DNA from: a virus
IMG/VR virus record: IMGVR_UViG_3300006217_000050
Direction: 5' to 3' (one strand)
DNA length: 58,653 nt
The notes beneath the pieces were generated by a model. It was given only the letters and a program-made list of their open reading frames with translations, did no database searches and was not told the DNA's origin. Position numbers and translations under genes: made by a program. Below are positions 1 to 58,653 of the stretch, piece by piece. Position 1 is the stretch's first letter; each line of letters opens with the position of its first letter.

Positions 1-109
1 CTTAATCCTCCTTGTAATAATCCCTGATTGCCTTTTCCACCAAAAGCAAGTCATTGTCGATTGTCAGCGTTTCAAACATTCCAATGGGAGATTTACTCAC
101 CGCCCCGTC
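1..109. repeat. Terminal direct repeat, left copy (identical to 58545..58653); marks circular closure or terminal redundancy
   Basis: Base-by-base comparison of the first 109 nt with the last 109 nt shows identity. Confidence 0.95.
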
Positions 110-3365: not shown

Positions 3366-3506
3366 TTAGACGTATTCGCGCCAGTTCTGGGCAAAGTAGC
3401 TCGTCATTGCAGATCCGTCCTTGACACGGATGTCCTTCCGGCAGGGTTTATGTATGCCCCGATTCGCCATATTTGTTTTTGCAACTGCTCTTGCGAGTTT
3501 CCTCAT
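3366..3506 (-). CDS. hypothetical small basic protein (46 aa, below the ORF-track cutoff)
   Basis: ATG 3506 preceded by AAAGGAGGA. My translation is MRKLARAVAKTNMANRGIHKPCRKDIRVKDGSAMTSYFAQNWREYV. Confidence 0.5.
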   Translation of the reverse strand: MRKLARAVAKTNMANRGIHKPCRKDIRVKDGSAMTSYFAQNWREYV

Positions 3507-3556
3507 GATACTTGTCCTCCTTTTGATTAAAATCTGGAAGCCCACTCTGGAGCATC

Positions 3557-3754
3557 CTATTCCTTCACATGCACCATTTTTGTAAGGGGTTCGTATTCCA
3601 GCTCCAAGGAATTGCCCTCCCGGTCTGTCAAAAACCCCTCATTACCTCTCACAGTAAGGGAAAAATACTCCTCTACCAAACCCTCCTGGACCATCCATTT
3701 CCTGATTGCATATTCCGCGATACTCCTCGCACCTTTAATTGCCATCGCATTCAC
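3557..3754 (-). CDS. hypothetical small protein
   Basis: 65-aa ORF, second gene of the leftward early operon. Confidence 0.5.
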   Translation of the reverse strand: MNAMAIKGARSIAEYAIRKWMVQEGLVEEYFSLTVRGNEGFLTDREGNSLELEYEPLTKMVHVKE

Positions 3755-3763
3755 CTCCCATCC

Positions 3764-4018
3764 TTACTCCAAAAAATATGTTTCGCCTCCTTTATTTTGC
3801 GCTGTGCAACTTCCGTTGTAAAAAAAATAAACAGCAAATTCCTCTGGCTTAATATGCAATAAATCTGAAAGTTGTTCAGCTTCATTTAAATCCATAGGAC
3901 GAATATTGTTTATTTTCTGATTAATAGTTGGCTGTGCAAGTCCTAACGAATTAGCAACATCTTTCTGGGTTATCTGCAATTCTGCCATTCTACCCTTGAT
4001 TTTATTTGTGTTAATCAA
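3764..4018 (-). CDS. Cro-like XRE-family HTH regulator
   Basis: HTH segment ITQKDVANSLGLAQPTINQKINN. Divergent from the CI-like gene. TTG 4018 preceded by AAGGAGGAA. Confidence 0.7.
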   Translation of the reverse strand: MINTNKIKGRMAELQITQKDVANSLGLAQPTINQKINNIRPMDLNEAEQLSDLLHIKPEEFAVYFFYNGSCTAQNKGGETYFLE

Positions 4019-4044
4019 GTTTATTCCTCCTTTCGTCTGAATCA

Positions 4045-4073
4045 ATAGTAGCATTATGCAACAAATATGTCAA
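4045..4073 (-). promoter_or_regulatory. Leftward early promoter (TTGACA-17-TACTAT)
   Basis: On the minus strand, TTGACA (4068..4073), a 17-nt spacer and TACTAT (4045..4050), upstream of the Cro-like gene. Confidence 0.6.
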
Positions 4074-4114
4074 TAGCTGTGCGCAACTTTTTTTAAATTA
4101 TTTTGTTTTTGCTA

Positions 4115-4143
4115 TTGCATTACGCAATAAAATATAATATAAT
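4115..4143 (+). promoter_or_regulatory. Rightward repressor promoter (TTGCAT-17-TATAAT) overlapping a TTGC-N5-GCAA inverted repeat
   Basis: TTGCAT 4115..4120, 17-nt spacer, TATAAT 4138..4143. TTGCATTACGCAA lies at 4115..4127. Confidence 0.6.
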
Positions 4144-4168
4144 GTCTGTCATAGAGAGGTGATTCAAC

Positions 4169-4612
4169 ATGACAAATGCAGAAATAGGAAATAGAATCAA
4201 ACATGCTCGTGATTTAAGAGATGTTACTTTGGATGATATCGCAAAAAAAGTAGGTGTTGCAAAATCTACTATACAACGCTATGAGACTGGAAAGATTACT
4301 ACTATAAAAATTCCTGTTGTTGAGTCAATCGCCATAGCTTTAAATGTGAATCCTGCATGGATTGTTGGAAAATCTGAAGATATGGAGCTTCCATCACAAA
4401 AGGTTCCAAAAATCATGCAGTATTACGAACAGCTCAACGACATAGGCAAGCATGAAGCCACAAAGAGGGTTGAGGAGCTGACAATGGTTCCGCGGTATGT
4501 TAAAGAAGATCCTGGTTATGTCAATGCGGCCCATGCGGATGATTATGCCAATGCTCCAGAGGAGCTGAAGCAATTAGAAGAAGAAATGATTATGAAAAAA
4601 TTTCTAAAGTAA
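4169..4612 (+). CDS. CI-like XRE-family repressor (no S24 peptidase domain)
   Basis: 147 aa. N-terminal HTH LDDIAKKVGVAKSTIQRYETGK. Followed by an ImmA-like gene, as in ImmR/ImmA modules. Confidence 0.8.
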   Translation: MTNAEIGNRIKHARDLRDVTLDDIAKKVGVAKSTIQRYETGKITTIKIPVVESIAIALNVNPAWIVGKSEDMELPSQKVPKIMQYYEQLNDIGKHEATKRVEELTMVPRYVKEDPGYVNAAHADDYANAPEELKQLEEEMIMKKFLK

Positions 4613-4624
4613 GGAGTTGATTTT

Positions 4625-5080
4625 GTGACATACGAAGACTTGTTGATTGAGGCAGACCAAAACAACATCATCACAAAAGAAGCGCCGCTTCCTATCAGTA
4701 AGGGAAGAATAATGGGGAATTGGATAGCAATAAACAGCAAAATGACCGAAACAGAAAAGAAATGCATCATGGCGGAGGAGCTGGGTCACTATTACACCGG
4801 GTGCGGAGACATCCTGGACCAGTCCTCTGTTGCCAATAGGAAGCAGGAACGGTATGGCCGGGTTCATGCATATAACCGCCTGGTCGGCCTGATCGGGCTC
4901 ATAGACGTGTACAAGCATCACTGTGAAAGCCTTTATGATGCAGCTGAGCACCTGCATGTATCGGAGGATTTCTTAGCAGAATCAATATCATATTACCGAA
5001 GCAAGTACGGAGTCTGCACCACCGTTGATAACTATGTAGTTTATTTTGAGCCGCATATCGGAGTGCTTGAGCTGAAGTAA
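4625..5080 (+). CDS. ImmA/IrrE-like (DUF955) metallopeptidase, putative anti-repressor protease
   Basis: 151 aa, GTG start. EELGH motif in the place of HExxH. Sits immediately downstream of the XRE repressor. Confidence 0.6.
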   Translation: MTYEDLLIEADQNNIITKEAPLPISKGRIMGNWIAINSKMTETEKKCIMAEELGHYYTGCGDILDQSSVANRKQERYGRVHAYNRLVGLIGLIDVYKHHCESLYDAAEHLHVSEDFLAESISYYRSKYGVCTTVDNYVVYFEPHIGVLELK

Positions 5081-5106
5081 CCCTAGAACAGGGAAGAAGG
5101 TGGCGA

Positions 5107-5661
5107 ATGAGTTTAATACTTGGATACGCAACTAAGACAAATGCTGTTATAATGAGCGATGGAAAAGCTGGTGGAACAATAAGGCCATCAGAATCTTGCA
5201 ATAAAACCAGGAAAATTAATGACAATATTATCTTGGGATTTGCCGGATATTTAGAAGATATTACTTATGCTTTCGATTATATCACTGATGTAAGCGGTAA
5301 TGACCTCAATAATTATATGATAGATGATTTTTGGAACATAATTATTTCCTTTATGAGAAATAAGCAAACACCAAAATTTTTCCATTCCTCATTTATTATT
5401 ATTGGACGTCATAATAATGGAAACATGTATACTTCTATAATAGGTGACAATACAAATTATATGCTTGAAGAACACAAAGTGGAAAACCCCCGGTATTTAA
5501 CTATAGGTGGAAGCATTGACGGAGAAATCATCAATCAAATTTACTCTAGTAATATAAAACAATTTGGAAGCCCAATAGAAAAACGCATAATTGATACCAT
5601 AAGGAAAGTATCAGCTCTTGACAACTCCATCAACACAAATACTTTTACCGTTACGATTTAA
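5107..5661 (+). CDS. HslV/20S-proteasome-beta-like Ntn-hydrolase-fold protein (paralog 1)
   Basis: 184 aa. MSLILGYATKTNAVIMSDGKAGG...NKTRKINDNIILGFAGYLEDITYAF aligns by eye with HslV TTIVSV...VVIAGDGQ...[23 protein letters not shown]. A later LTIGGSIDG matches GSGG. Visibly AT-rich. Confidence 0.6.
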   Translation: MSLILGYATKTNAVIMSDGKAGGTIRPSESCNKTRKINDNIILGFAGYLEDITYAFDYITDVSGNDLNNYMIDDFWNIIISFMRNKQTPKFFHSSFIIIGRHNNGNMYTSIIGDNTNYMLEEHKVENPRYLTIGGSIDGEIINQIYSSNIKQFGSPIEKRIIDTIRKVSALDNSINTNTFTVTI

Positions 5662-5784
5662 TGTCGCCGTGTACTGGTCAACATCATCAATGGCAATATC
5701 TAATTTGTTATTGTTCATGTCTCCAAGATCAGTAACTCTTTTAGGATATTTTGACCAGTCAATATGTTTATAATTTTGTTCCAT
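5611..5784 (-). CDS. small ORF (57 aa) convergent with and overlapping the Ntn-like gene; N-terminus resembles a tail-fibre N-terminus
   Basis: ATG 5784 preceded by AAAGGAGA and lying downstream of promoter-like element P1. MEQNYKHIDWSKYPKRVTDLGDMNNNKLDIAIDDVDQ compares with fibre ENIGWENKPSDKSPINKRNLNKMDYSIDVIDDR. Confidence 0.4.
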   Translation of the reverse strand: MEQNYKHIDWSKYPKRVTDLGDMNNNKLDIAIDDVDQYTATLNRNGKSICVDGVVKS

Positions 5785-5812
5785 AGCTTATCTCCTTTTC
5801 TGTTCTATAAAT

Positions 5813-5846
5813 AATTATACATCGTAAAAGGAGCTATTTGTACCAA
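5813..5846 (-). promoter_or_regulatory. Phage-specific promoter-like element P1 (TTGGTACAA-N19-ATAATT)
   Basis: Read on the minus strand. Shares the motif and the exact 19-nt spacing with ten other sites. Confidence 0.55.
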
Positions 5847-5880
5847 AATAAAACCGCCCGGTGCTACCAACACCGAACGG
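5845..5880 (-). terminator. Rho-independent terminator-like hairpin (minus strand)
   Basis: Minus strand reads CCGTTCGGTG-ttggtag-CACCGGGCGG followed by TTTTATTTT. Confidence 0.55.
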
Positions 5881-5893
5881 CTTTAGATACACC

Positions 5894-5950
5894 CCAGAAG
5901 GATGATACATTAGGTCTCCCAAACCTACACACAGTGTATCATCCTCCTGG
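5894..5950. repeat. 16-bp near-perfect inverted repeat with a 25-nt loop (structured RNA/DNA element)
   Basis: ccagaaggatgataca (5894..5909) pairs with tgtatcatcctcctgg (5935..5950), with one mismatch. Confidence 0.6.
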
Positions 5951-6020
5951 GCACCTGGTCAATCAGAACATTTGTTTATGATTGGGTGTAATTTTTGTAC
6001 TCATTTTTAAGGAGGCTATC

Positions 6021-7049
6021 ATGAAGATTGAAAAGCGAGGATCCGGATCCTACCGGGTCAGGAAGATGTACAAGGGGCAGATGTACACGGTCAATTTTGA
6101 CCACAAGCCCACACAGAAAGAAGCTATGTTGGCTATGGCGGATGAGCTACAGAAGATTCAGACTAAGCATGAGAGCATGGATTTCAAAGCGGCGGCTGAA
6201 GAATATATTGAGGCTAAGAAAAATGTATTGTCTCCCACAACAATAAAGGGTTATAAAAGTGCCATGAAAACCATATCTAAAAAATTCCAGGGCCTAAACA
6301 TACACGACATTACGGCCTTAGATATACAATCCGAGATCAATATTTTAGCAATAGGACACAGCCCGAAGACTGTACGGAACTACCACGGCTTTATTTCGGC
6401 CGTCCTGGGCACATTTTGTCCGAACCTTAAGATTAGTACCACCCTGCCACAAAAACTCAAAAACGAGCCGTATATACCCTCTGATGAAGAAGTGAAGAAA
6501 ATACTAAAATATTCTAAGGGAACCGAGTATGAGATTCCAATAATTCTTGCCTGCTATGGTCTACGTAGATCGGAAATATGCGCATTGACACTCGACGATA
6601 TAGAAGATGATATAGTAACCATTGATAAAGCCAAAGTATTAGCAGACACAGAAACCTGGGTAAACAAAACAACAAAGACAACTTCAAGTACACGGCAAAT
6701 TATTATACCAATGGAAATCGCAGACATGATAAGAAAGAAAGGCTACATATACAAAGGCCATCCTAATTCAATAAACTCTTTCCTGGTAAAAACCGAAGAT
6801 AAACTTGGAATACCACACTTTCCGTTGCATAAACTTCGCCATTATTTTGCATCTAAAATGAGTGCTCTAAATGTGCCGGAAGCAGATATTATGAAGATGG
6901 GTGGATGGGAAACGGATCATGTTATGAAATCAGTTTACCGGCATTCCATGATAAACCAAGAAAAAGACGCTAAGAGGCAAGCAGCTGAAAAGTTAAAAAA
7001 TGCCCTTTTCACCCAGGACAACTCCGGACAAATTCTGGACAAAAAGTGA
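6021..7049 (+). CDS. int: Tyrosine-type site-specific integrase
   Basis: ATG 6021 preceded by AAGGAGG. C-terminal HKLRHYFAS ... GGWETDHVMKSVYRH matches the HxLRH and catalytic Tyr motifs. Confidence 0.9.
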   Translation: MKIEKRGSGSYRVRKMYKGQMYTVNFDHKPTQKEAMLAMADELQKIQTKHESMDFKAAAEEYIEAKKNVLSPTTIKGYKSAMKTISKKFQGLNIHDITALDIQSEINILAIGHSPKTVRNYHGFISAVLGTFCPNLKISTTLPQKLKNEPYIPSDEEVKKILKYSKGTEYEIPIILACYGLRRSEICALTLDDIEDDIVTIDKAKVLADTETWVNKTTKTTSSTRQIIIPMEIADMIRKKGYIYKGHPNSINSFLVKTEDKLGIPHFPLHKLRHYFASKMSALNVPEADIMKMGGWETDHVMKSVYRHSMINQEKDAKRQAAEKLKNALFTQDNSGQILDKK

Positions 7050-7094
7050 TACAAATTTGCGTTGTAACGTACAAATATAAATTGTAAAACTGAC

Positions 7095-7154
7095 ATGCAA
7101 AAAGCCGCAGATCCTCGATTTTCCTGGGAAAACCTTGGTTCTGCGGCTTTGCAT
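7095..7154. repeat. Long inverted repeat downstream of int (terminator-like)
   Basis: atgcaaaaagccgcaga (7095..7111) pairs with tctgcggctttgcat (7140..7154). Confidence 0.5.
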
Positions 7155-7160
7155 GAAAAA

Positions 7161-7185
7161 AGCGGGTGATGGGAATCGAACCCAC
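7161..7185 (-). other. attP core: 3' fragment (T-arm plus acceptor strand) of a tRNA gene, tRNA-Gly-like
   Basis: Minus strand reads GTGGGTTCGATTCCCATCACCCGCT. No matching 5' half is nearby. Sits just after int. Confidence 0.6.
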
Positions 7186-7228
7186 AAAACAAATTCTCAA
7201 AAACATTGTAAATACAGGGCTTCAAAAA

Positions 7229-7252
7229 TTTCTGGACAAATTTCTGGACAAA
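7229..7252 (+). repeat. Tandem 12-bp repeat tttctggacaaa x2, candidate integrase arm-type sites
   Basis: Two exact copies. Two more GGACAAA copies at 7024..7045 lie on the other side of the attP core. Confidence 0.5.
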
Positions 7253-7336
7253 TTTTTCAACTTTATCTTCTTCTGTTTAGACTACAAGTCTTATCCTCAA
7301 TTTTGCATTTTGTAAATATTCTTAAAACCAGTAAAC

Positions 7337-7370
7337 TTGGTACAATGATTTTCCCTTTCCATATTATAAT
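7337..7370 (+). promoter_or_regulatory. Promoter-like element P2 (TTGGTACAA-N19-TATAAT)
   Basis: Plus strand, about 100 nt upstream of the antirepressor-like gene at 7473. Confidence 0.6.
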
Positions 7371-7472
7371 GAAAATATGGCAGGGATAGGGAGCGCACCC
7401 GACAAAAGCAGCTTTCCACCTTTCATGCTTTCCCTGCCTATGTTGGAAATGGTGGAGAAAGGTGAAGTGTAT

Positions 7473-8273
7473 ATGAATGATTTGACTGTAAAGACTGTGG
7501 ATTTATTTGGCGACAAGGTGGTTGCGGCGCAGGATAAGGACGGTGTTATCTGGGCCGGGGTCAAGTGGTTTTGCAATGGCCTCGGATTTTCGGATGGGCA
7601 GAGGCAAAGACAAACAACTAATATAGGAGAGGATATAGTATTAAGCAAAGGTGTTGCAAATTTGCACCTCCCTACAAGCGGCGGATATCAGGACGTTTTA
7701 TGCCTGAAACTAGATTTCCTTCCCCTATGGCTTGCGAAGATCTCAATCACGCCAAACATGAAAGAGAATAACCCGGAACTGGTGGACAAACTGGTAAAAT
7801 ATCAGTTGCAGGCGAAAGACATTCTGGCGGCAGCATTCATTCCGGCATTCAGGAAAAGGTCAGCCATAGAAGAGCTGCAGGAATTGCAAGGCAGGGCCAT
7901 CCTGGAGGTAAATGAGAAAGTTGACAGCGTAGAAAAGCGCGTAGACTACTTGGAGAATGATATTCCCCTTTATGGCTCAGAAGCCGACGAAATCAGCCGG
8001 AAAGTAAAGAAGAAGGGCGTGGAGATCCTGGGCGGCAGGGAAAGCGATGCCTATACTGATAGTAAACTGCGATCAGAAGTATATTCGGACATATACAACC
8101 AGATTAAGCGCGAGTTCGGCCTGTATGACAGCAACGGGAAATTTGTAACATACAAGGCCCTGAAGAGGCGATACATCAAAGAGGCCCATGTACTCATCGA
8201 AGCTTATACACCGCCGAAATATCTTGAAGAGAAAATAAAAAACTGCAATGCACAGCAACGGTTAATGGAATGA
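7473..8273 (+). CDS. Antirepressor-like protein: P22_AR_N-like N-domain plus ORF6C-like C-domain
   Basis: ATG 7473 (MNDLTVKTVDLFGDKVVAAQDKDGVIWAGVKWFCNGLG...LWLAKISIT). The C-terminus ...KNCNAQQRL parallels the C-terminus of the 14162 gene. Confidence 0.7.
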   Translation: MNDLTVKTVDLFGDKVVAAQDKDGVIWAGVKWFCNGLGFSDGQRQRQTTNIGEDIVLSKGVANLHLPTSGGYQDVLCLKLDFLPLWLAKISITPNMKENNPELVDKLVKYQLQAKDILAAAFIPAFRKRSAIEELQELQGRAILEVNEKVDSVEKRVDYLENDIPLYGSEADEISRKVKKKGVEILGGRESDAYTDSKLRSEVYSDIYNQIKREFGLYDSNGKFVTYKALKRRYIKEAHVLIEAYTPPKYLEEKIKNCNAQQRLME

Positions 8274-8274
8274 A

Positions 8275-8302
8275 AGTGGAAGAGAAAATCTTCCACTTTT
8301 TT
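8275..8302 (+). terminator. Rho-independent terminator
   Basis: AGTGGAAG-agaaaat-CTTCCACT followed by TTTTTT. Confidence 0.7.
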
Positions 8303-8340
8303 GGGTATATTTTCTTCAATATCTGATATATTGAAAATTA

Positions 8341-8370
8341 GGCAGAGAAGAAAAATCCCTCTGCCTTTTT
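8341..8370 (+). terminator. Second terminator-like hairpin
   Basis: GGCAGAG-N-CTCTGCC followed by TTTTT. Confidence 0.55.
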
Positions 8371-8438
8371 ATGTTCTTTTGTGTTATACTCTCCATACAG
8401 GCCCCGCCAGGCCGAGTATAGAGGAAATGAGAAAATAT

Positions 8439-9083
8439 ATGTCATTATGTATAACTTTTTACAATGAGCATGGAATAATTATGTCAGCAGACAATATGGT
8501 TTGCTCTACCATAGAAAAAGATAATTCTCCATATACCTATCAAGGTTCCAAAACAGAACAAAAACTTTTTCTTATTGAAGACAAATATGGAGTTTCATAC
8601 TCTGGAGCATCAAACATTTACGCTGCTTCTACTTCAGCCTTTTTGGAGGAATACATTACTTCACATCCTATCATTGAAGTCCCACCAAGTGAATGGCTTC
8701 TTGAATTGGCTCAAAAGTGCAATAATTTGCTTAATCCAAGCCAAAACATGGTTTTTATAATGGCCGGATACTATCATTCTGAAAAGTTTGTTGTGACTAC
8801 TAACACTAAAGAGCCAAAATTGAATTTCCAAACAAATAATAGCGGGTTGCTTTATTCAGGAGAAAGTGAATTTATATCACATTTAATCAACTCGGATATA
8901 ATTGCGTTTGAATATTCTAAATTTACCCTGCAAGACGGTGCTGACTTTTTGCGTTTTCTCAACAAAACAGTTTCAGGGTTAATGCACTATGGACAATATC
9001 TCCCAACTGTAAGTGATACCTGCGACCTTTTAGCCATACGTCCTAATGAGACTCGCTGGTTAGAACACTTGACGCTGCACTGA
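8439..9083 (+). CDS. HslV/proteasome-beta-like Ntn-hydrolase-fold protein (paralog 2, divergent)
   Basis: Starts MSLCITFYNEHGIIMSADNM (alternative ATG at 8427). Also KTEQKLFLIEDKYGVSYSGAS and LLYSGESEF, the same pattern as paralog 1. AT-rich. The ORF track extends it to 8301. Confidence 0.5.
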   Translation: MSLCITFYNEHGIIMSADNMVCSTIEKDNSPYTYQGSKTEQKLFLIEDKYGVSYSGASNIYAASTSAFLEEYITSHPIIEVPPSEWLLELAQKCNNLLNPSQNMVFIMAGYYHSEKFVVTTNTKEPKLNFQTNNSGLLYSGESEFISHLINSDIIAFEYSKFTLQDGADFLRFLNKTVSGLMHYGQYLPTVSDTCDLLAIRPNETRWLEHLTLH

Positions 9084-9240
9084 CCGCACAATCAATTCTT
9101 TTCCTAGTAACAGTCGTTACGGATGTTGAGTCTCTATTGGTCATGACTGTTATTAAGACATCTGGCGCTGAAACGGAAATTTCCTGCTCGTTTACGGTGA
9201 TTTCCGTTTTTCCGTTACTGATAATGATTTCTTTATCCAT
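9043..9240 (-). CDS. hypothetical small protein, convergent with and overlapping Ntn-like paralog 2
   Basis: 65-aa ORF downstream of P3. Overlaps the 3' end of 8439..9083 by 41 nt. Confidence 0.4.
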   Translation of the reverse strand: MDKEIIISNGKTEITVNEQEISVSAPDVLITVMTNRDSTSVTTVTRKRIDCAVSAASSVLTSESH

Positions 9241-9267
9241 CTATATCCCCTCCAATCATTTTCTTTA

Positions 9268-9301
9268 ATATTATCATATCTATATAAATATTTTGTGCCA
9301 T
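9268..9301 (-). promoter_or_regulatory. Promoter-like element P3 (ATGGCACAA-N19-TAATAT, variant)
   Basis: Minus strand, same 19-nt spacing, one substitution in the upstream box. Confidence 0.45.
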
Positions 9302-9349
9302 TTTAAACACTAAATTTCTACAACATATAAATTTCCCTGTCAATATATG

Positions 9350-9393
9350 AAATCACAGGCCGCCACTTGGTTGGTAGTGACGGCCTGTGATTT
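9350..9393 (-). terminator. 18-bp stem hairpin right after the Rha-like gene
   Basis: aaatcacaggccgccact pairs with agtgacggcctgtgattt. Only a short T-run follows. Confidence 0.45.
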
Positions 9394-9923
9394 CAAAAAT
9401 CGGCTATAGACATTTGCTGATATGCCGGAACCTTTGCGAAATTATCAATCAACTTGATTCCATATTGCTCGCAGATTAACTGTGCGTTCCGTACAATATC
9501 ATATGGCGTGGAATCGTTCTTCCTCATCAGCGGAGAAACGGCATTGATTATCTGTGCTACCCTGTCTGGCCGCTCTGTCAGAGGAGTCTGCTTCAACTGG
9601 TTCTCCATTTCATGAAAGCGCTTTACATACCGGGCAGTGAACAGCACTCCCTTTTCACCAGTGAATTTGTTTGCCAGGAAGTCGCAGCCAAGCCTAGTCA
9701 CTTCATAACACTTATTTTCCTTCCCGCTTGCGTCCCGATACGTTGACAGGATAAAGAAATCACTCACCACTATTTCGTTGTCAGTAAGCACCTCGATATA
9801 TCCCTTGATATGCTTGCCATCCTTTTCCTGGCCTTCCAGTTTCCGAAGGACTTTCCAGTGTTCTGTCTCCATCATCTCCGCGATTTCCAGTGTTGTGATT
9901 GTTGCATTCCTTAAATCATCCAT
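9393..9923 (-). CDS. Rha-family phage regulatory protein (antirepressor-like)
   Basis: ATG 9923 (MDDLRNATITTLEIAEMMETEHWKVLRKLE...). The C-terminal tail ...EQYGIKLIDNFAKVPAYQQMSIADF is shared with the 12513 and 27518 genes. Confidence 0.65.
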   Translation of the reverse strand: MDDLRNATITTLEIAEMMETEHWKVLRKLEGQEKDGKHIKGYIEVLTDNEIVVSDFFILSTYRDASGKENKCYEVTRLGCDFLANKFTGEKGVLFTARYVKRFHEMENQLKQTPLTERPDRVAQIINAVSPLMRKNDSTPYDIVRNAQLICEQYGIKLIDNFAKVPAYQQMSIADF

Positions 9924-10037
9924 AGATTTACCATCCCTCTCTTTAATGACCGTCCTTTTTTCCAAATAGGCAAGGAAACAGCCGGACGGTAACAGAACTG
10001 CTTTTCAAGTGCGCTCCCCTATCCTTGCCTTGAAAAT

Positions 10038-10071
10038 ATCGTATCATGAATTCAAATTAATTTTGTACCAT
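10038..10071 (-). promoter_or_regulatory. Promoter-like element P4 (ATGGTACAA-N19-TACGAT, with TG at the extended -10 position)
   Basis: Minus strand, upstream of the Rha-like gene. Confidence 0.55.
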
Positions 10072-10247
10072 TTTAAATGTCGAATTTCCACAGCACCTCG
10101 CATAGTTCAAATAACATATAACCCCTGTGGTAAAATTATCCTTATGTTGTTCTTCCATTTTTTGACAAAATGTGATATGATGAGTTTTGTCGTGTAGGTT
10201 CAAGTTTCAGGAACTATAGTTTTATCCGTAGGAGGAGGAAAAGGGAA

Positions 10248-10898
10248 ATGAAAAAGAAGCTATTAACAATGTTGTTGTTGTCTGTATTGGCTGTTAGTGC
10301 TGTGGCGTGCGGCGATAAAGATCCGAGTGAAAGCATTAATTCAGAGTCATCAGAAGAAGAAAATAGCACACAGCCAAAAAGCGAAGAATCCGAAAGCAGC
10401 CGTGAAGAGGAAACTCAAAGTGATGTTCCGGAGGAATCAGACCAGATGCAAGAATCGAATAATACTCATACTGTTGACGGAATCACTATTTCAACTGGTA
10501 CTTTTTCGGTTGAGCCATATGAGGATAACCAGGGAGAGTACACAAAACGAATTGTTATGGAGTTTACGATTAAAAATGAATCTGATTCTGCTTTTGGCTA
10601 TGTAACTACATGGGAGGGCCGGTTAAGCGATGGATACAAGCTTAAAACGTGGGCAGATTTGATGAGTATGGATTTGAACCAGGTTGCATCAGGCAGTGAA
10701 AAGACTGATAAGGCATATTTTCTGCTTGATGATAGCATAGACCCTGATGAAATAACTGTATCTTATAACTTTATGGATTATGGCGAAGAATACTGGGAAG
10801 ATTTTGGAAAAATTGTGACTGGAGAAATGGGCGAGGATGAGTATATGAGCAAGTACGGAGACTATGAGGTTCTGGAATTTAACGTAGTAAAAGAGTAA
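10248..10898 (+). CDS. Lipoprotein (possible superinfection-exclusion / surface protein)
   Basis: Signal peptide with lipobox LAVSAVAC-G, then a Ser/Glu-rich linker and a beta-rich domain. Confidence 0.7.
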   Translation: MKKKLLTMLLLSVLAVSAVACGDKDPSESINSESSEEENSTQPKSEESESSREEETQSDVPEESDQMQESNNTHTVDGITISTGTFSVEPYEDNQGEYTKRIVMEFTIKNESDSAFGYVTTWEGRLSDGYKLKTWADLMSMDLNQVASGSEKTDKAYFLLDDSIDPDEITVSYNFMDYGEEYWEDFGKIVTGEMGEDEYMSKYGDYEVLEFNVVKE

Positions 10899-12377: not shown

Positions 12378-12512
12378 AAGCAGTCGGTCACTTTGGCGAG
12401 AGACGACTACTTTTATCGCAACCAAATTGACAACAGTCAACTTAGGTACGCAAATATTATACACTGTGTACCTCTGTTTGGCAACCTGAAATTGTTGAAT
12501 GGAGGATTTTTA

Positions 12513-13118
12513 ATGGATGGATTAATTGTAAAGAACGTAGATATGTTTGGCGACAGCGTTATGGCGGCACAGGATAAGGACGGTGTTATCTGGGCAGGAA
12601 TTAATTTCTTTTGTCGTGGACTTGGAATGAGTAAGCGACAGAGGGACTTTCAGGTAGAGAAGGTTAAGACAGATAGGGCGCTTTCCAGGGGGTGCACGTT
12701 ATTACGGGCAGGGGTACTTGACCCGGCAAATGAAGTATACGCATTAAAACTTGATTTTGTTCCGATATGGCTGTCCAAGATTACGATTACCAAGAAAATG
12801 GAAGCAGAGACTCCGGAGCTTGCGGACAAGCTCCTACAGTACCAACTCAAGGCCAAGGACATCCTTGCGGCGGCGTTCCTGCCCAGTGCCCTTCCCCAGT
12901 CCGGGAGCACACAGCACATCACCCAGGACATCCCCGTGGGGGAGGTAGCCCGGCTCTCTACGGTCATGGACAGGATCATGGTACGGCAGAACTCCAAGCC
13001 CCACGACATTGCCAGGGCGTTTGAGATGCTGTGCAGGCAGTTTGGGATTGCGCTCCCGGAGAATTTTGTGAATGTGCCGGAGTGGGAGCAGTTGACGATT
13101 GAGAGCATGGGGAAGTAG
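12513..13118 (+). CDS. Antirepressor-like protein: P22_AR_N-like N-domain plus shared C-terminal tail
   Basis: ATG 12513 preceded by GGAGGA. MDGLIVKNVDMFGDSVMAAQDKDGVIWAGINFFCRGLG...IWLSKITIT. C-terminus ...RQFGIALPENFVNVPEWEQLTIESM. Confidence 0.7.
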   Translation: MDGLIVKNVDMFGDSVMAAQDKDGVIWAGINFFCRGLGMSKRQRDFQVEKVKTDRALSRGCTLLRAGVLDPANEVYALKLDFVPIWLSKITITKKMEAETPELADKLLQYQLKAKDILAAAFLPSALPQSGSTQHITQDIPVGEVARLSTVMDRIMVRQNSKPHDIARAFEMLCRQFGIALPENFVNVPEWEQLTIESMGK

Positions 13119-14161: not shown

Positions 14162-14860
14162 ATGGAAGAATTACAGATTGTGGAATACAATAATATTCGC
14201 GTATTAACCACACAGCAGGTAGCAGAAGCGTATCAGACAAGCACCGATACGGTTAAAAAGAATTTTAGCAGAAACAAAGACAGATACACAGAGGGAAAAC
14301 ATTATATCTGCTTGAATGGCGAGGAATTAAAGGATTTTAAAGCAAAGGGACAAATTGTCACCTCGCCAAATGTGAACACTCTGTACCTCTGGACACAGAA
14401 AGGTTGTCTGCTCCATGCGAAATCCCTTAACACAGATATTGCATGGGAAGTGTATGATAGGCTGGTTGACAATTACTTTGCACCTGTAAAGCAACTTTCG
14501 CAAGTGGATATGATGCGGATTCAGCTTGGCATGATTGACAACCATGAGGACAGAATAACCAATCTCGAAAACAACATGACGATTGATTACGGACAGCAAC
14601 GTGTACTGGAAGATACGGTCAATAAAACCGTTACTGACGTTCTCGGCGGCAAAGGCTCATGTGCTTATGAGGAAATCGGCAGAAAGATATTTGCAGAGTG
14701 CAACAGAGATTTGAAGCATTACTTCAATGTGAACGCAAGGAACAACGTCCCCAAAAAGCGATTTGATGAAGCTGTGGAATATGCAAAGAATTGGAAACCC
14801 TGCACCAATACGGTGATGCGGATTCAATATTGCAATGCACAGCAGACACTGGATGTATAG
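14162..14860 (+). CDS. Antirepressor-like protein: ORF6N (KilA-N-like) N-domain plus ORF6C-like C-domain
   Basis: IVEYNNIRVLTTQQVAEAYQTSTDTVKKNFSRNKDRYTEGKHY. The C-terminus ...YCNAQQTL parallels the 7473 gene. Confidence 0.65.
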   Translation: MEELQIVEYNNIRVLTTQQVAEAYQTSTDTVKKNFSRNKDRYTEGKHYICLNGEELKDFKAKGQIVTSPNVNTLYLWTQKGCLLHAKSLNTDIAWEVYDRLVDNYFAPVKQLSQVDMMRIQLGMIDNHEDRITNLENNMTIDYGQQRVLEDTVNKTVTDVLGGKGSCAYEEIGRKIFAECNRDLKHYFNVNARNNVPKKRFDEAVEYAKNWKPCTNTVMRIQYCNAQQTLDV

Positions 14861-28331: not shown

Positions 28332-28468
28332 ACCGGAATTGAACCGATGTCTCGTCTATTGACGTGTTCTGCCCGCCTAAACTATTTTCTGCTGACAAAA
28401 AGTGCCCGGATTTGAACCGGGGTTCCTGCGCTGATAACGCTGCTTCTTCCTCGTGAGCTACTTCTTTT
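28332..28468 (-). pseudogene. Two tRNA-like relics (good T-arms, poor acceptor/anticodon pairing)
   Basis: Minus-strand T-arms are ATCGGTTCAATTCCGGT (28332..28348) and CCCGGTTCAAATCCGGG (28405..28421). I could not fold canonical cloverleaves. Confidence 0.35.
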
Positions 28469-28856
28469 TGTTTAAGTGATTATACCACAATTTCTCAATC
28501 CTCTCAACCATTTTCTTTTCTTCGGTAGTAAGATTTGATGCTCCTTTAGGACCGTCATTTTCAAAGTGTATATAACCATGATGAGTATGCGGCTTCATCT
28601 TTTTGTGTGGGTGATCTAAATCAACAGACTTTACTCGTTTATTGTTAGAATCAAAATACATTACTGATAACAAGTCTTTTCCACCAACTGTAACATATAC
28701 CCTTCCGGGAGTCATTGTTTCCATGAGTGTTTCTGATGTGCGATCAGTTTTGGTAACAAATTTTATATTTCCGTTTTGCAGAATTGTATTATATTCACTT
28801 CCGTACTTCTTCCCCTTGTTGGATATACCCGAACTGGCCCCTCTTCCTCCCATCAC
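28458..28856 (-). CDS. hypothetical protein, possibly a MuF-C-terminal-like domain
   Basis: 132 aa. Begins MMGGRGASSG, with a His-rich HPHKKMKPHTHHGY. AT-rich. Confidence 0.5.
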   Translation of the reverse strand: MMGGRGASSGISNKGKKYGSEYNTILQNGNIKFVTKTDRTSETLMETMTPGRVYVTVGGKDLLSVMYFDSNNKRVKSVDLDHPHKKMKPHTHHGYIHFENDGPKGASNLTTEEKKMVERIEKLWYNHLNKKK

Positions 28857-35664: not shown

Positions 35665-35754
35665 TCGGGAAAGTTGGAATCGAACCAACAATGTTTACCG
35701 CGTGGGAACGGATTTACAGTCCGCCGCAACACCACCAATCGTTGCCGTTTCCCG
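35665..35754 (-). tRNA. tRNA-Tyr (anticodon GTA), long variable arm, no encoded CCA
   Basis: Hand fold. Acceptor CGGGAAA/TTTCCCG (7 bp). D-stem GCAAC/GTTGC. Anticodon stem CGGA/TCCG with loop CTGTAAA. T-arm GTTGG-TTCGATT-CCAAC. Confidence 0.75.
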
Positions 35755-36385: not shown

Positions 36386-36461
36386 TGGAAAGTATAGGAA
36401 TCGAACCTATCTCGCCGGTGCTAGCCTCCCAGCAGTTTCACGCCAGATAACACAACTTTCC
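36386..36461 (-). ncRNA. 76-nt tRNA-like element (perfect 7-bp acceptor and T-arm; anticodon region non-canonical)
   Basis: Acceptor GGAAAGT/ACTTTCC. T-arm ATAGG-TTCGATT-CCTAT. GG at the D-loop position. The best anticodon helix leaves a 6-, 8- or 10-nt loop containing CTA. Confidence 0.4.
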
Positions 36462-36650
36462 ACTGTCCATTTTCTGTCTGCAAGGACCGTGCAGTGCGGA
36501 CTTACATAGTTTAACGTGTTCTTAAAGCCGATATTCGTTGCGAGAAACGCCACGTTTGGCACTTTTGTCCTGGCCGCAGATCGTTAATTAAATGTTTGCT
36601 TTGTGATTCCGAGTCTTCATGTCGGCATCCTCCTTTTGCTTGATAGATAC

Positions 36651-58544: not shown

Positions 58545-58653
58545 CTTAATCCTCCTTGTAATAATCCCTGATTGCCTTTTCCACCAAAAGCAAGTCATTG
58601 TCGATTGTCAGCGTTTCAAACATTCCAATGGGAGATTTACTCACCGCCCCGTC
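58545..58653. repeat. Terminal direct repeat, right copy (identical to 1..109)
   Basis: Identity with the first 109 nt. Confidence 0.95.

Follow-up and report, generated by a model that had tools for sequence, protein, structure and literature searches.

A predicted proteasome-like serine hydrolase gene set tail-to-tail with a small protein gene in a temperate Lachnospiraceae phage

Fuchs, Alva and Lupas (2021) described 22 proteasome-like families, among them PPH and AAH in phages and FC1 to FC5 in Firmicutes (PMC8665760). WP_075525441.1 is an example of an FC1 representative, and the survey found no genomic context suggestive of function for the proteasome homologues (PMC8665760). Our subject is a gene of this broad kind in IMG/VR virus record IMGVR_UViG_3300006217_000050, a stretch of 58,653 nucleotides (nt) that we call the window. 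Gene B, on the plus strand, runs tail-to-tail into a small protein gene on the minus strand, and a second hydrolase gene of the window, gene A, has the same layout. The fold and its presence in phages were already known. What appears to be new is a recurrent convergent two-gene cassette, found independently in two branches of the fold. The features are as follows.

8439..9083, plus strand: gene B, encoding a predicted 214-residue Ser1 N-terminal-nucleophile hydrolase with a proteasome beta/Anbu-like fold.
9043..9240, minus strand: small gene B, 65 residues, starting MDKEIIISNGKTEITVNEQEISVSAP, with the ribosome-binding site GGAGGGG.
9043..9083, unstranded: overlap B, 41 nt, tail-to-tail with the gene B coding region.
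5107..5661, plus strand: gene A, encoding a predicted 184-residue Ser1 hydrolase with an HslV-like fold, beginning MSLILGY.
5611..5784, minus strand: small gene A, 57 residues, convergent with gene A; its protein family is conserved and shows the motif (K/N)KxYKxIDWSK.

Compared by description, the clusters of Fuchs and colleagues resemble A and B in being divergent Thr1 or Ser1 proteins without propeptides, some spread by phages and some restricted to Firmicutes (PMC8665760). Unlike in that survey, a recurrent position among prophage accessory genes and a convergent small-gene partner are seen here. Proteasome beta subunits, Anbu and HslV (family T1) share with A and B the predicted fold and, in register, the N-terminal nucleophile, Asp17 and Lys33. 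They differ in that A and B have Ser for the Thr nucleophile, lack a propeptide and are single genes borne by a phage. The closest structural relative of B is A0A8S5LJV3, the 'Proteasome beta type-2 subunit' of Siphoviridae sp. ct3o911. Its label is automatic only, and it shows that such genes had already been labelled in virome data.

Accessory prophage loci can lie antisense to the lytic genes, under a promoter of their own (PMC7067206). Classical morons share with the gene B cassette a deviant base composition, their own promoter, an orientation against the lytic genes and a variable presence and position. A classical moron is built as promoter, gene and terminator, whereas the unit here has two convergent genes whose stop codons leave no space for a terminator between them. 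In the OOP/cII pair of phage lambda, the 3' end of a lysogeny-side gene is entered by transcription from a promoter that lies downstream of it (PMC7067206). The OOP RNA is short, non-coding and ends at its own terminator, whereas the transcript here would encode a selected protein and meets no predicted terminator before crossing its target. The OOP/cII overlap spans tens of nucleotides. Convergent, 3'-overlapping type I toxin–antitoxin pairs, txpA/RatA and bsrG/SR4, are found in prophage-like elements of Bacillus subtilis; in pairs of the txpA/RatA type a small hydrophobic membrane peptide is the toxin and a non-coding RNA the antitoxin. The A and B cassettes are likewise prophage-borne, convergent, 3'-overlapping units, but the target is an enzyme of 184–214 residues and the opposing transcript would carry a protein gene under purifying selection.

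Ser1, Asp17 and Lys33 are numbered here in the mature, beta1 style, and M1, S2, D18 and K42 are counted from Met. The original prediction, made from the letters of the window, had given gene B an MSL start and an Asp at position 17 from Ser1; both are borne out by translation of 8439..9083 on the plus strand, the product beginning MSLCITFYNEHGIIMSADNM. Across 17 homologues of B, the residues M1, S2, L3, D18, K42, G56, Y139, G141, E142, T190, V191, S192, C195 and D196 are invariant and S140 nearly so. In alignment A3, which holds 34 diverse sequences, S2 is at least 90% conserved, and D18 and K42 are invariant. Sequence searches of the Protein Data Bank (PDB) with B alone or with its close-family profile returned nothing significant; the 34-sequence profile was needed, and it aligns the family with yeast beta1 at an expectation value (E) of 1.6e-5, setting S2 on Thr1, D18 on Asp17 and K42 on Lys33. 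Equivalents of HslV motifs had also been claimed, in KLFLIE..YSG and YSGE. The Lys33 register stands, by profile alignment, while Gly47 and Ser129 are assigned from position: G56 and S140-G141 are conserved at the places expected for the Gly47 oxyanion hole and for Ser129-Gly. It is because of the invariant residues and the beta1 profile alignment that we read the two motifs as probable Lys33/Gly47 and Ser129-Gly equivalents. Taken with the fold match, the alignment of S2, D18 and K42 to the beta1 residues Thr1, Asp17 and Lys33 leads us to predict that B is an active Ser1 N-terminal-nucleophile hydrolase without a propeptide. Methionine aminopeptidase generally removes the initiator Met before Ser, and Ser1 of B would be exposed in this ordinary way.

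The start matters because public gene callers place it elsewhere. At the related loci L023-25 and L059-63 (loci are numbered with an L), B is called as 260 residues, from a TTG at 8301, or as 200 residues, from Met15. Both calls conceal the N-terminal Ser that defines the enzyme class, and the TTG start of the longer one reads through terminator hairpins. A profile search of 1.8 billion cluster representatives puts 625 representatives in the B family at E <= 1e-3. Of the best 150 among them, nearly all align from protein residue 1, and the sequences read start MS. The family alignment supports the MSL start over both public calls. The ribosome-binding site of B has a weak spacing, of 14 nt.

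An AlphaFold model of B, built on the alignment of close homologues, has a predicted local distance difference test (pLDDT) score of 86 and a predicted template modelling (pTM) score of 0.86. Searched with Foldseek, it finds proteasome beta subunits and Anbu at E 4e-8 with template modelling (TM) scores of 0.6–0.68; 351 PDB matches have E <= 0.001, and the best 50 of the 351 are all proteasome subunits or Anbu. The best viral match, in a library of predicted viral structures, is A0A8S5LJV3 (TM 0.85, 25% identity, E 3.7e-15). The models of both B and A have the four-layer alpha-beta-beta-alpha architecture of the proteasome. Close homologues of B are few (21 proteins, all metagenomic), and only four of 185,579 species genomes carry family B, all four of them Lachnospiraceae. 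B has no match in Pfam, PHROGs, NCBIfam or PADLOC. Among 34 B relatives, three match the Pfam proteasome model (PF00227) at E <= 0.01, the best at 1.2e-5, and Pfam gave no sign of domain fusions in the longer members of the family.

Gene A sits in a different place. It is the last gene of a string made up of a repressor (4169..4612), an ImmA-type metalloprotease (4625..5080) and the hydrolase, with gaps of 12 and 26 nt. It passes the Pfam Proteasome cut-off (E 4e-7, 30.3 bits against a curated 22.4), and its model, with a pLDDT of 91.6, has HslV as its best Foldseek match at E 4.9e-10, with HslV and beta subunits at the top. Membership of HslV itself was rejected for both proteins, which have Ser1, no HslU gene seen nearby and no NCBIfam match; A is HslV-like by fold only. 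In the window and the related loci examined, neither hydrolase was seen to have a gene for an AAA+ unfoldase of the HslU type next to it.

B had been called a second, divergent paralog of A, and this part of the original prediction falls. BLASTP of A against B finds no similarity, hhalign of the two close-family profiles gives a probability of 2%, and a broad profile yields a weak alignment, in the correct register, at 25%; the best fold matches are HslV for A and beta/Anbu for B. Because neither BLASTP nor hhalign finds similarity at the family level, A and B are not paralogs by duplication in this phage, and recent paralogy was likewise rejected for want of a homologous alignment by BLASTP or close-family hhalign. 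Their sequences and models point instead to two deep branches of one fold, separately acquired.

The small genes turned out to have substance of their own. Each small open reading frame (ORF) of the window has a good ribosome-binding site. The overlaps had been measured correctly, at 51 nt for 5611..5661 and 41 nt for 9043..9083, and the two small ORFs, said to be unlike each other, indeed have no similarity on comparison. What cannot be kept is the suggestion that antisense transcription alone is conserved and the small ORFs are incidental. Outside the overlap, the rates of non-synonymous and synonymous change (pN and pS) in small gene B are 0.08 and 0.43. In family A they are 0.12 and 0.68, again purifying selection, and the family A small proteins are homologous to one another (BLASTP 1e-5) and form a conserved protein family. 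The window small protein B has homologues in L009 (BLASTP 1e-7) and L059-63, and an identical copy was seen on 245 public metagenome contigs. Because there is purifying selection outside the overlap, both small ORFs are, to judge by their sequences, real and selected protein genes and not mere antisense carriers. Searches of PHROGs, NCBIfam and PADLOC with both small ORFs gave nothing useful. A 54-residue homologue of the window small ORF lies in the early operon of other phages (L026-L029, 3501..3885), where there is no hydrolase; it is tail-to-tail with a 78-residue gene on the opposite strand, with a 17-nt overlap.

A repeated two-part module had been proposed, together with a search for the same layout in relatives, and the layout is there. 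A convergent small ORF accompanies the hydrolase at 9 of 10 family B phage loci and in 7 of 8 family A locus types; a metagenome locus scan added no more than three loci. In family B the overlap is 41 nt in the window, L001, L009, L014 and L059-63, 50 nt in L004 and L013, and 15 nt in L007 and L008, while in family A it ranges from 16 to 51 nt across the 7 locus types. Opposing promoter-like sites and the 51- and 41-nt 3' overlaps both recur in relatives. The pairs also hold together away from their usual surroundings: L009 has the window type of hydrolase and small gene inside a tail module, and in L022 a family A pair is kept outside the immunity region, between an anti-repressor gene and the Ltp/SNIPE genes.

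Three of these loci deserve a description. At L017-L020 (2924..3910) the family A cassette adjoins an Mrr-like nuclease of the exclusion or defence type. At L022 (4818..8350) it lies beside an Ltp lipoprotein and a SNIPE/T5orf172 nuclease. At L012/L016 (5001..5497), in Lacrimispora xylanisolvens DSM 3808, the family B hydrolase is broken, with a stop after 71 residues and its middle missing, and the convergent 64-residue ORF beside it is intact.

The genome around the cassettes is that of a temperate phage. The window represents a complete phage genome of ~58.5 kb, assembled as a circle, with an identical 109-bp terminal direct repeat at 1..109 and 58545..58653. All of the identified replication, packaging, structure and lysis genes are on the minus strand, with replication and methylase genes at both window ends, then terminase, capsid, tail and lysis. 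On the plus strand come, first, the repressor, the ImmA-type metalloprotease, gene A and the integrase. The attachment site is near 7100-7190, prophage relatives meeting host DNA at 7101, and a plus-strand accessory region holds first an anti-repressor, then gene B and a lipoprotein-like gene, and last another two genes of the anti-repressor type. As had been claimed, the two hydrolase genes are rich in AT, at 31.5% GC for A and 35.8% for B against 44.7% for the whole window.

Gene B keeps no fixed address. It is second from the prophage end in the integrated relatives L023-25, beside cro/repressor in L001, L004 and L007, and inside tail modules in L009 and L059-63, giving at least four different insertion contexts. 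Wherever a repressor and an integrase are seen, it is co-oriented with both and opposite to the neighbouring phage genes. A unit of 883 bp at 8385..9267, comprising leader, hydrolase and small gene, matches a block of L059-63 at 86% identity. It runs from the -10 element of the hydrolase to just upstream of the small-ORF ribosome-binding site, the homology stopping just outside both 5' untranslated regions. The L059-63 block is inverted relative to the neighbouring Ant gene and lies between the Ant operon and a gene of ~1,300-1,400 residues. On this alignment the hydrolase and small gene B move as one unit, and gene B has the marks of an accessory or moron gene: deviant composition, a predicted promoter of its own, and variable presence and position.

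Every promoter and terminator named in this text is a sequence prediction, which we count against the mechanism set out below. Two promoter-like sites face the hydrolases, and the motif they belong to occurs on both strands of the window.

5838..5845, minus strand: P1, an exact TGGTACAA (5845..5838), 18 nt, then TATAAT (5819..5814).
9268..9300, minus strand: P3, TGGCACAA (9300..9293), 16 nt, then TGaTAATAT, with the -10 at 9273..9268.
5838, 7338, 9293 (one mismatch), 10063, 14027 and 27471, both strands: the motif (T)TGGTACAA, 16 nt, TGnTAnnAT.
28253, 35955, 36676, 41240 and 49583, both strands: the same motif (T)TGGTACAA, continued.
5885..5849, minus strand: a predicted terminator hairpin that directly precedes P1, the two making up the block 5814..5885.

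A shared promoter element driving both small ORFs had been claimed. P1 is exact and P3 is present at the equivalent place, but P3 differs by one base, so the two are not identical. Each lies ~60 nt upstream of its small-ORF ATG, with a TG-extended -10 element 16–18 nt after the 8-mer, and L059-63 has TTGGTACAA-N16-TGgTACAAT at the position equivalent to P3. The exact 8-mer TGGTACAA occurs 13 times in the window against 1.44 expected, a count that none of 100 shuffles reached. Ten of the exact copies are intergenic with a -10 at a fixed distance, and copies precede both small ORFs, anti-repressor genes and several genes for replication and structure. Because the copies are spread phage-wide before many kinds of gene, TGG(T/C)ACAA is best read from these sequences as the phage's general promoter-like motif and not as a mark of the hydrolase module; the same 8-mer motif was seen in other Lachnospiraceae phages. 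The P1/P3 module is nonetheless more than chance, given the enrichment of the 8-mer and the convergent layout in independent related loci. A promoter-like site, often directly after a terminator hairpin, stands before the small ORF twice in the window and in L017, L021, L036, L040 and L059-63, and L021 has the same hairpin-plus-promoter arrangement as P1. Two formal readings of the 8-mer were rejected: as a sigma-70 -35, given the 21–22 nt to the -10, and as a sigma-54 site (TGGCAC/TGGTAC), since conservation among the copies does not extend to the -12 GC element.

On the hydrolase side, the predicted signals are these.

8382..8390, plus strand: the gene B -10, a TG-extended TGtTATACT of a putative sigma-A-type promoter.
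8397..8418, plus strand: the B leader, ACAG, a 4–5 bp hairpin (GGCC at 8400..8403 and 8410..8413) and GAGTA, preceding the ribosome-binding site.
8272..8301, plus strand: a predicted terminator, with a GUGGAAGAG/CUUCCAC stem then UUUUUU, ending the Ant gene at 7377..8273.
8340..8366, unstranded: a second hairpin, GGCAGAG..CUCUGCC, U-tailed on the plus strand and flagged as a terminator on the minus strand too; the left boundary of the convergent unit.
9170..9210, plus strand: a 12-bp hairpin within small ORF B followed by a U-rich run; a candidate terminator of the hydrolase messenger RNA (mRNA).
9348..9395, unstranded: a two-way hairpin after the Rha gene (9393..9965, minus strand); the right boundary of the convergent unit.

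In the window the gene B promoter would consist of a weak CTGCCT (8361..8366), 18 nt and TGtTATACT, the -35-like hexamer doubling as the 3' arm of the 8340..8366 hairpin. Relatives of B have TTGCCx or TTGTCT at the same place, then 17 nt and TATAAT or TATACT (six loci compared). The leader hairpin has covariation in its favour: in alignment A4, of six sequences, 90% of its cells are paired against 17–46% when the pairing is slid, and three of five pairs change on both sides. Its folding energy is no better than that of shuffles (z = -0.7). The leader, which might stabilise the 5' end of the mRNA or serve as a regulatory site, was also seen upstream of the hydrolase in L001, L004, L007, L013 and L014. 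The stronger structures are at the boundaries. The fold of 8270..8375 has z = -5.1 on the plus strand and -7.0 on the minus strand; that of 9348..9395 reaches -32 kcal/mol on the plus strand and -36 kcal/mol on the minus strand, with z about -8. The 9170..9210 hairpin has -19.9 kcal/mol and z = -3.1. On the minus strand from 9043 to 8366 there is no terminator-like site. Rfam searched over 3500..10500 gave no match near any gathering score, and a comparison of the immunity region with the B, P1 and P3 promoters for a common operator brought out no notable 9-mers.

How might such a cassette work? We suggest that gene B is a non-core, accessory ('moron') cassette of temperate Lachnospiraceae phages, with a predicted sigma-A-type promoter and a structured leader of its own. 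It would most likely be expressed from the prophage, because it points with the lysogeny genes (repressor and integrase) and against the lytic genes. Small gene B, tail-to-tail with it, would be driven by its own promoter of the TGG(T/C)ACAA class. Because the coding regions overlap, a terminator cannot fit between the stop codons, and no terminator-like site follows on the minus strand between 9043 and 8366; P3 transcription would therefore run antisense through the whole hydrolase gene, as far as the hairpins of 8340..8366 and 8272..8301. Firing of the phage-type promoters would leave less hydrolase, through colliding polymerases and pairing between complementary RNAs; conversely, hydrolase transcription would lower the opposing side, making an either/or switch. 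The small proteins are probably partners of the enzymes, as regulator or inhibitor, most clearly in family A, and gene A would be an independent, HslV-like case of the same design in the slot between repressor and integrase. As to what the enzyme does, we can only guess: it may protect the lysogen against other phages, or control a protein of the phage or the host. Antisense, antitoxin-like control of the hydrolase is plausible from the layout. For the reading as a whole (that the AT-rich accessory cassette is expressed in the lysogen, that convergent transcription from a phage-type promoter opposes this, and that the small protein is a selected partner) we see about an even chance.

A number of observations weigh against it. 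The 21–22 nt from TGG(T/C)ACAA to the -10 are too long for a standard -35. The candidate terminator at 9170..9210 would cut the hydrolase mRNA early, limiting the RNA overlap. At L015, L031 and L032 the convergent ORF is separated from the hydrolase by a 25-nt gap, with no overlap; L010, a family B locus in a non-phage context, has no convergent gene; a small ORF is missing from the family A loci L044 and L047; and in the more distant L050 and L052 the hydrolase gene runs in the direction of its neighbours. Family B small ORFs are of at least three unrelated types across loci, and the window type is found, too, where there is no hydrolase (P0213 in L026-29). A specific protein partnership is weakened by this variety and by that hydrolase-free occurrence. 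Finally, neither hydrolase and neither small ORF matches the PADLOC defence models at E <= 1.

The arrangement could also be incidental packing: in a compact phage genome any reverse-oriented accessory gene has a single convergent neighbour, the antisense frame at the hydrolase's 3' end would by chance be open as far as the conserved Pro-Asn codons, the small genes would be unrelated phage genes, and convergent transcription would regulate nothing. The TAG stop of small ORF B lies antisense to CCTAAT, the conserved Pro-Asn codons of the hydrolase, so the hydrolase sets the end point of the 41-nt overlap, and three unrelated small ORFs share this 41-nt tail. Within the overlap the codons of small gene B have pN 0.26 against pS 0.09, without purifying selection. 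The changing small-ORF types, the window type found without a hydrolase and the co-orientation of the distant members fit as well, and between the window and L001 the homology is confined exactly to the hydrolase coding region. Yet elsewhere hydrolase and small gene travel as the 883-bp unit, whichever way it is turned; in family A a single homologous small protein is retained over three different contexts; the small gene is no operon end but repeatedly follows a terminator and a promoter-like site of its own; and two unrelated hydrolase families with the same design lie in one genome. We regard packing by chance as a serious minority possibility, with perhaps half the weight of an opposed, lysogen-expressed cassette.

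The parallel with type I toxin–antitoxin pairs of Bacillus prophage-like elements suggests something more aggressive, in which the hydrolase is harmful, the convergent transcript, the small protein or both are the antidote, and the outcome is addiction that stabilises the prophage or abortive infection that kills infected cells. The unit is indeed self-contained, mobile, AT-rich and made of two genes, overlapping convergently at the 3' ends, and the weak 14-nt ribosome-binding-site spacing of hydrolase B would suit a toxin. In the bacterial copy at L012/L016 the hydrolase is broken and the small ORF retained, and the neighbours at L017 (Mrr-type nuclease) and L022 (Ltp and SNIPE) are of exclusion or defence type. 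But the putative toxin is a soluble enzyme of 184–214 residues and not a small membrane peptide, hydrolases without the small gene occur in L044, L047 and L010, and PADLOC returns no match. We consider this unlikely. Full-text literature searches found no paper tying proteasome-like proteins to phage defence. A broader proposal, that the two cassettes are a new prophage two-part module with a Ser1 peptidase effector, for defence or addiction, curbed by small protein and antisense RNA and switched off in the lytic cycle, is a little less improbable, and we offer it tentatively.

Gram-positive phages are known to carry excisionase genes beside, and divergent from, the integrase gene. Small ORF A, divergent from the integrase, occupies such a place; it is acidic, has no DNA-binding domain match and is present in L022 without a nearby integrase, and an excisionase role was judged unlikely. 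Least probable of all, and in our view improbable, is a lysis–lysogeny regulator in which the hydrolases cleave repressor, anti-repressors or the integrase-excision machinery, the integrase-side small ORF is the excisionase and P1 is antisense to the immunity operon: gene A does follow repressor and ImmA-type protease directly, one relative, P0024, is a called fusion in which a LexA-type repressor remnant comes first, gene B (like the family A copy in L022) follows an anti-repressor gene and many family B loci adjoin cro/repressor, but the same cassettes lie inside tail modules far from any switch (L009, L059-63), the properties of small ORF A speak against its part, and the pattern of presence and absence, like the AT-rich composition, is that of accessory genes and not of core regulators.

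Other features of the window touch the story only at its edges. The attachment region at 7094..7190 holds the 3' end of a minus-strand tRNA gene (GGTTCGATTCCCATCACCCGC). There are four anti-repressor-type genes, at 7377..8273 (P22_AR_N/ORF6C), 9393..9965 (Rha), 12393..13118 (P22_AR_N) and 14162..14860 (ORF6N/ORF6C), and a TGGTACAA-type site precedes three of the four: Ant, Rha and ORF6N/ORF6C. The Rha gene and its promoter (9338..10059) form a cassette between two similar promoter copies, around 9300 and 10070, and a near-identical prophage, L023, lacks exactly 9338..10059. ARAGORN makes three tRNA-like calls on the minus strand, at 28396..28469 (Asp-atc) and, each 90 nt long, at 35665..35754 (Tyr) and 36386..36475 (Ala). 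They have unusual anticodons or lengths, are intergenic and lie near TGGTACAA sites, and may be false positives or structured RNAs.

Dozens of bacterial and phage proteasome-like families are of unassigned function, and this analysis gives a genomic context for two. Both hydrolases sit in prophage accessory slots, against minus-strand lytic genes and tail-to-tail with a small protein gene under selection. The phage of the window is common in public metagenomes, to judge by the 245 contigs with an identical small protein B, and the convergent layout of the cassettes makes the function of the enzymes experimentally approachable.

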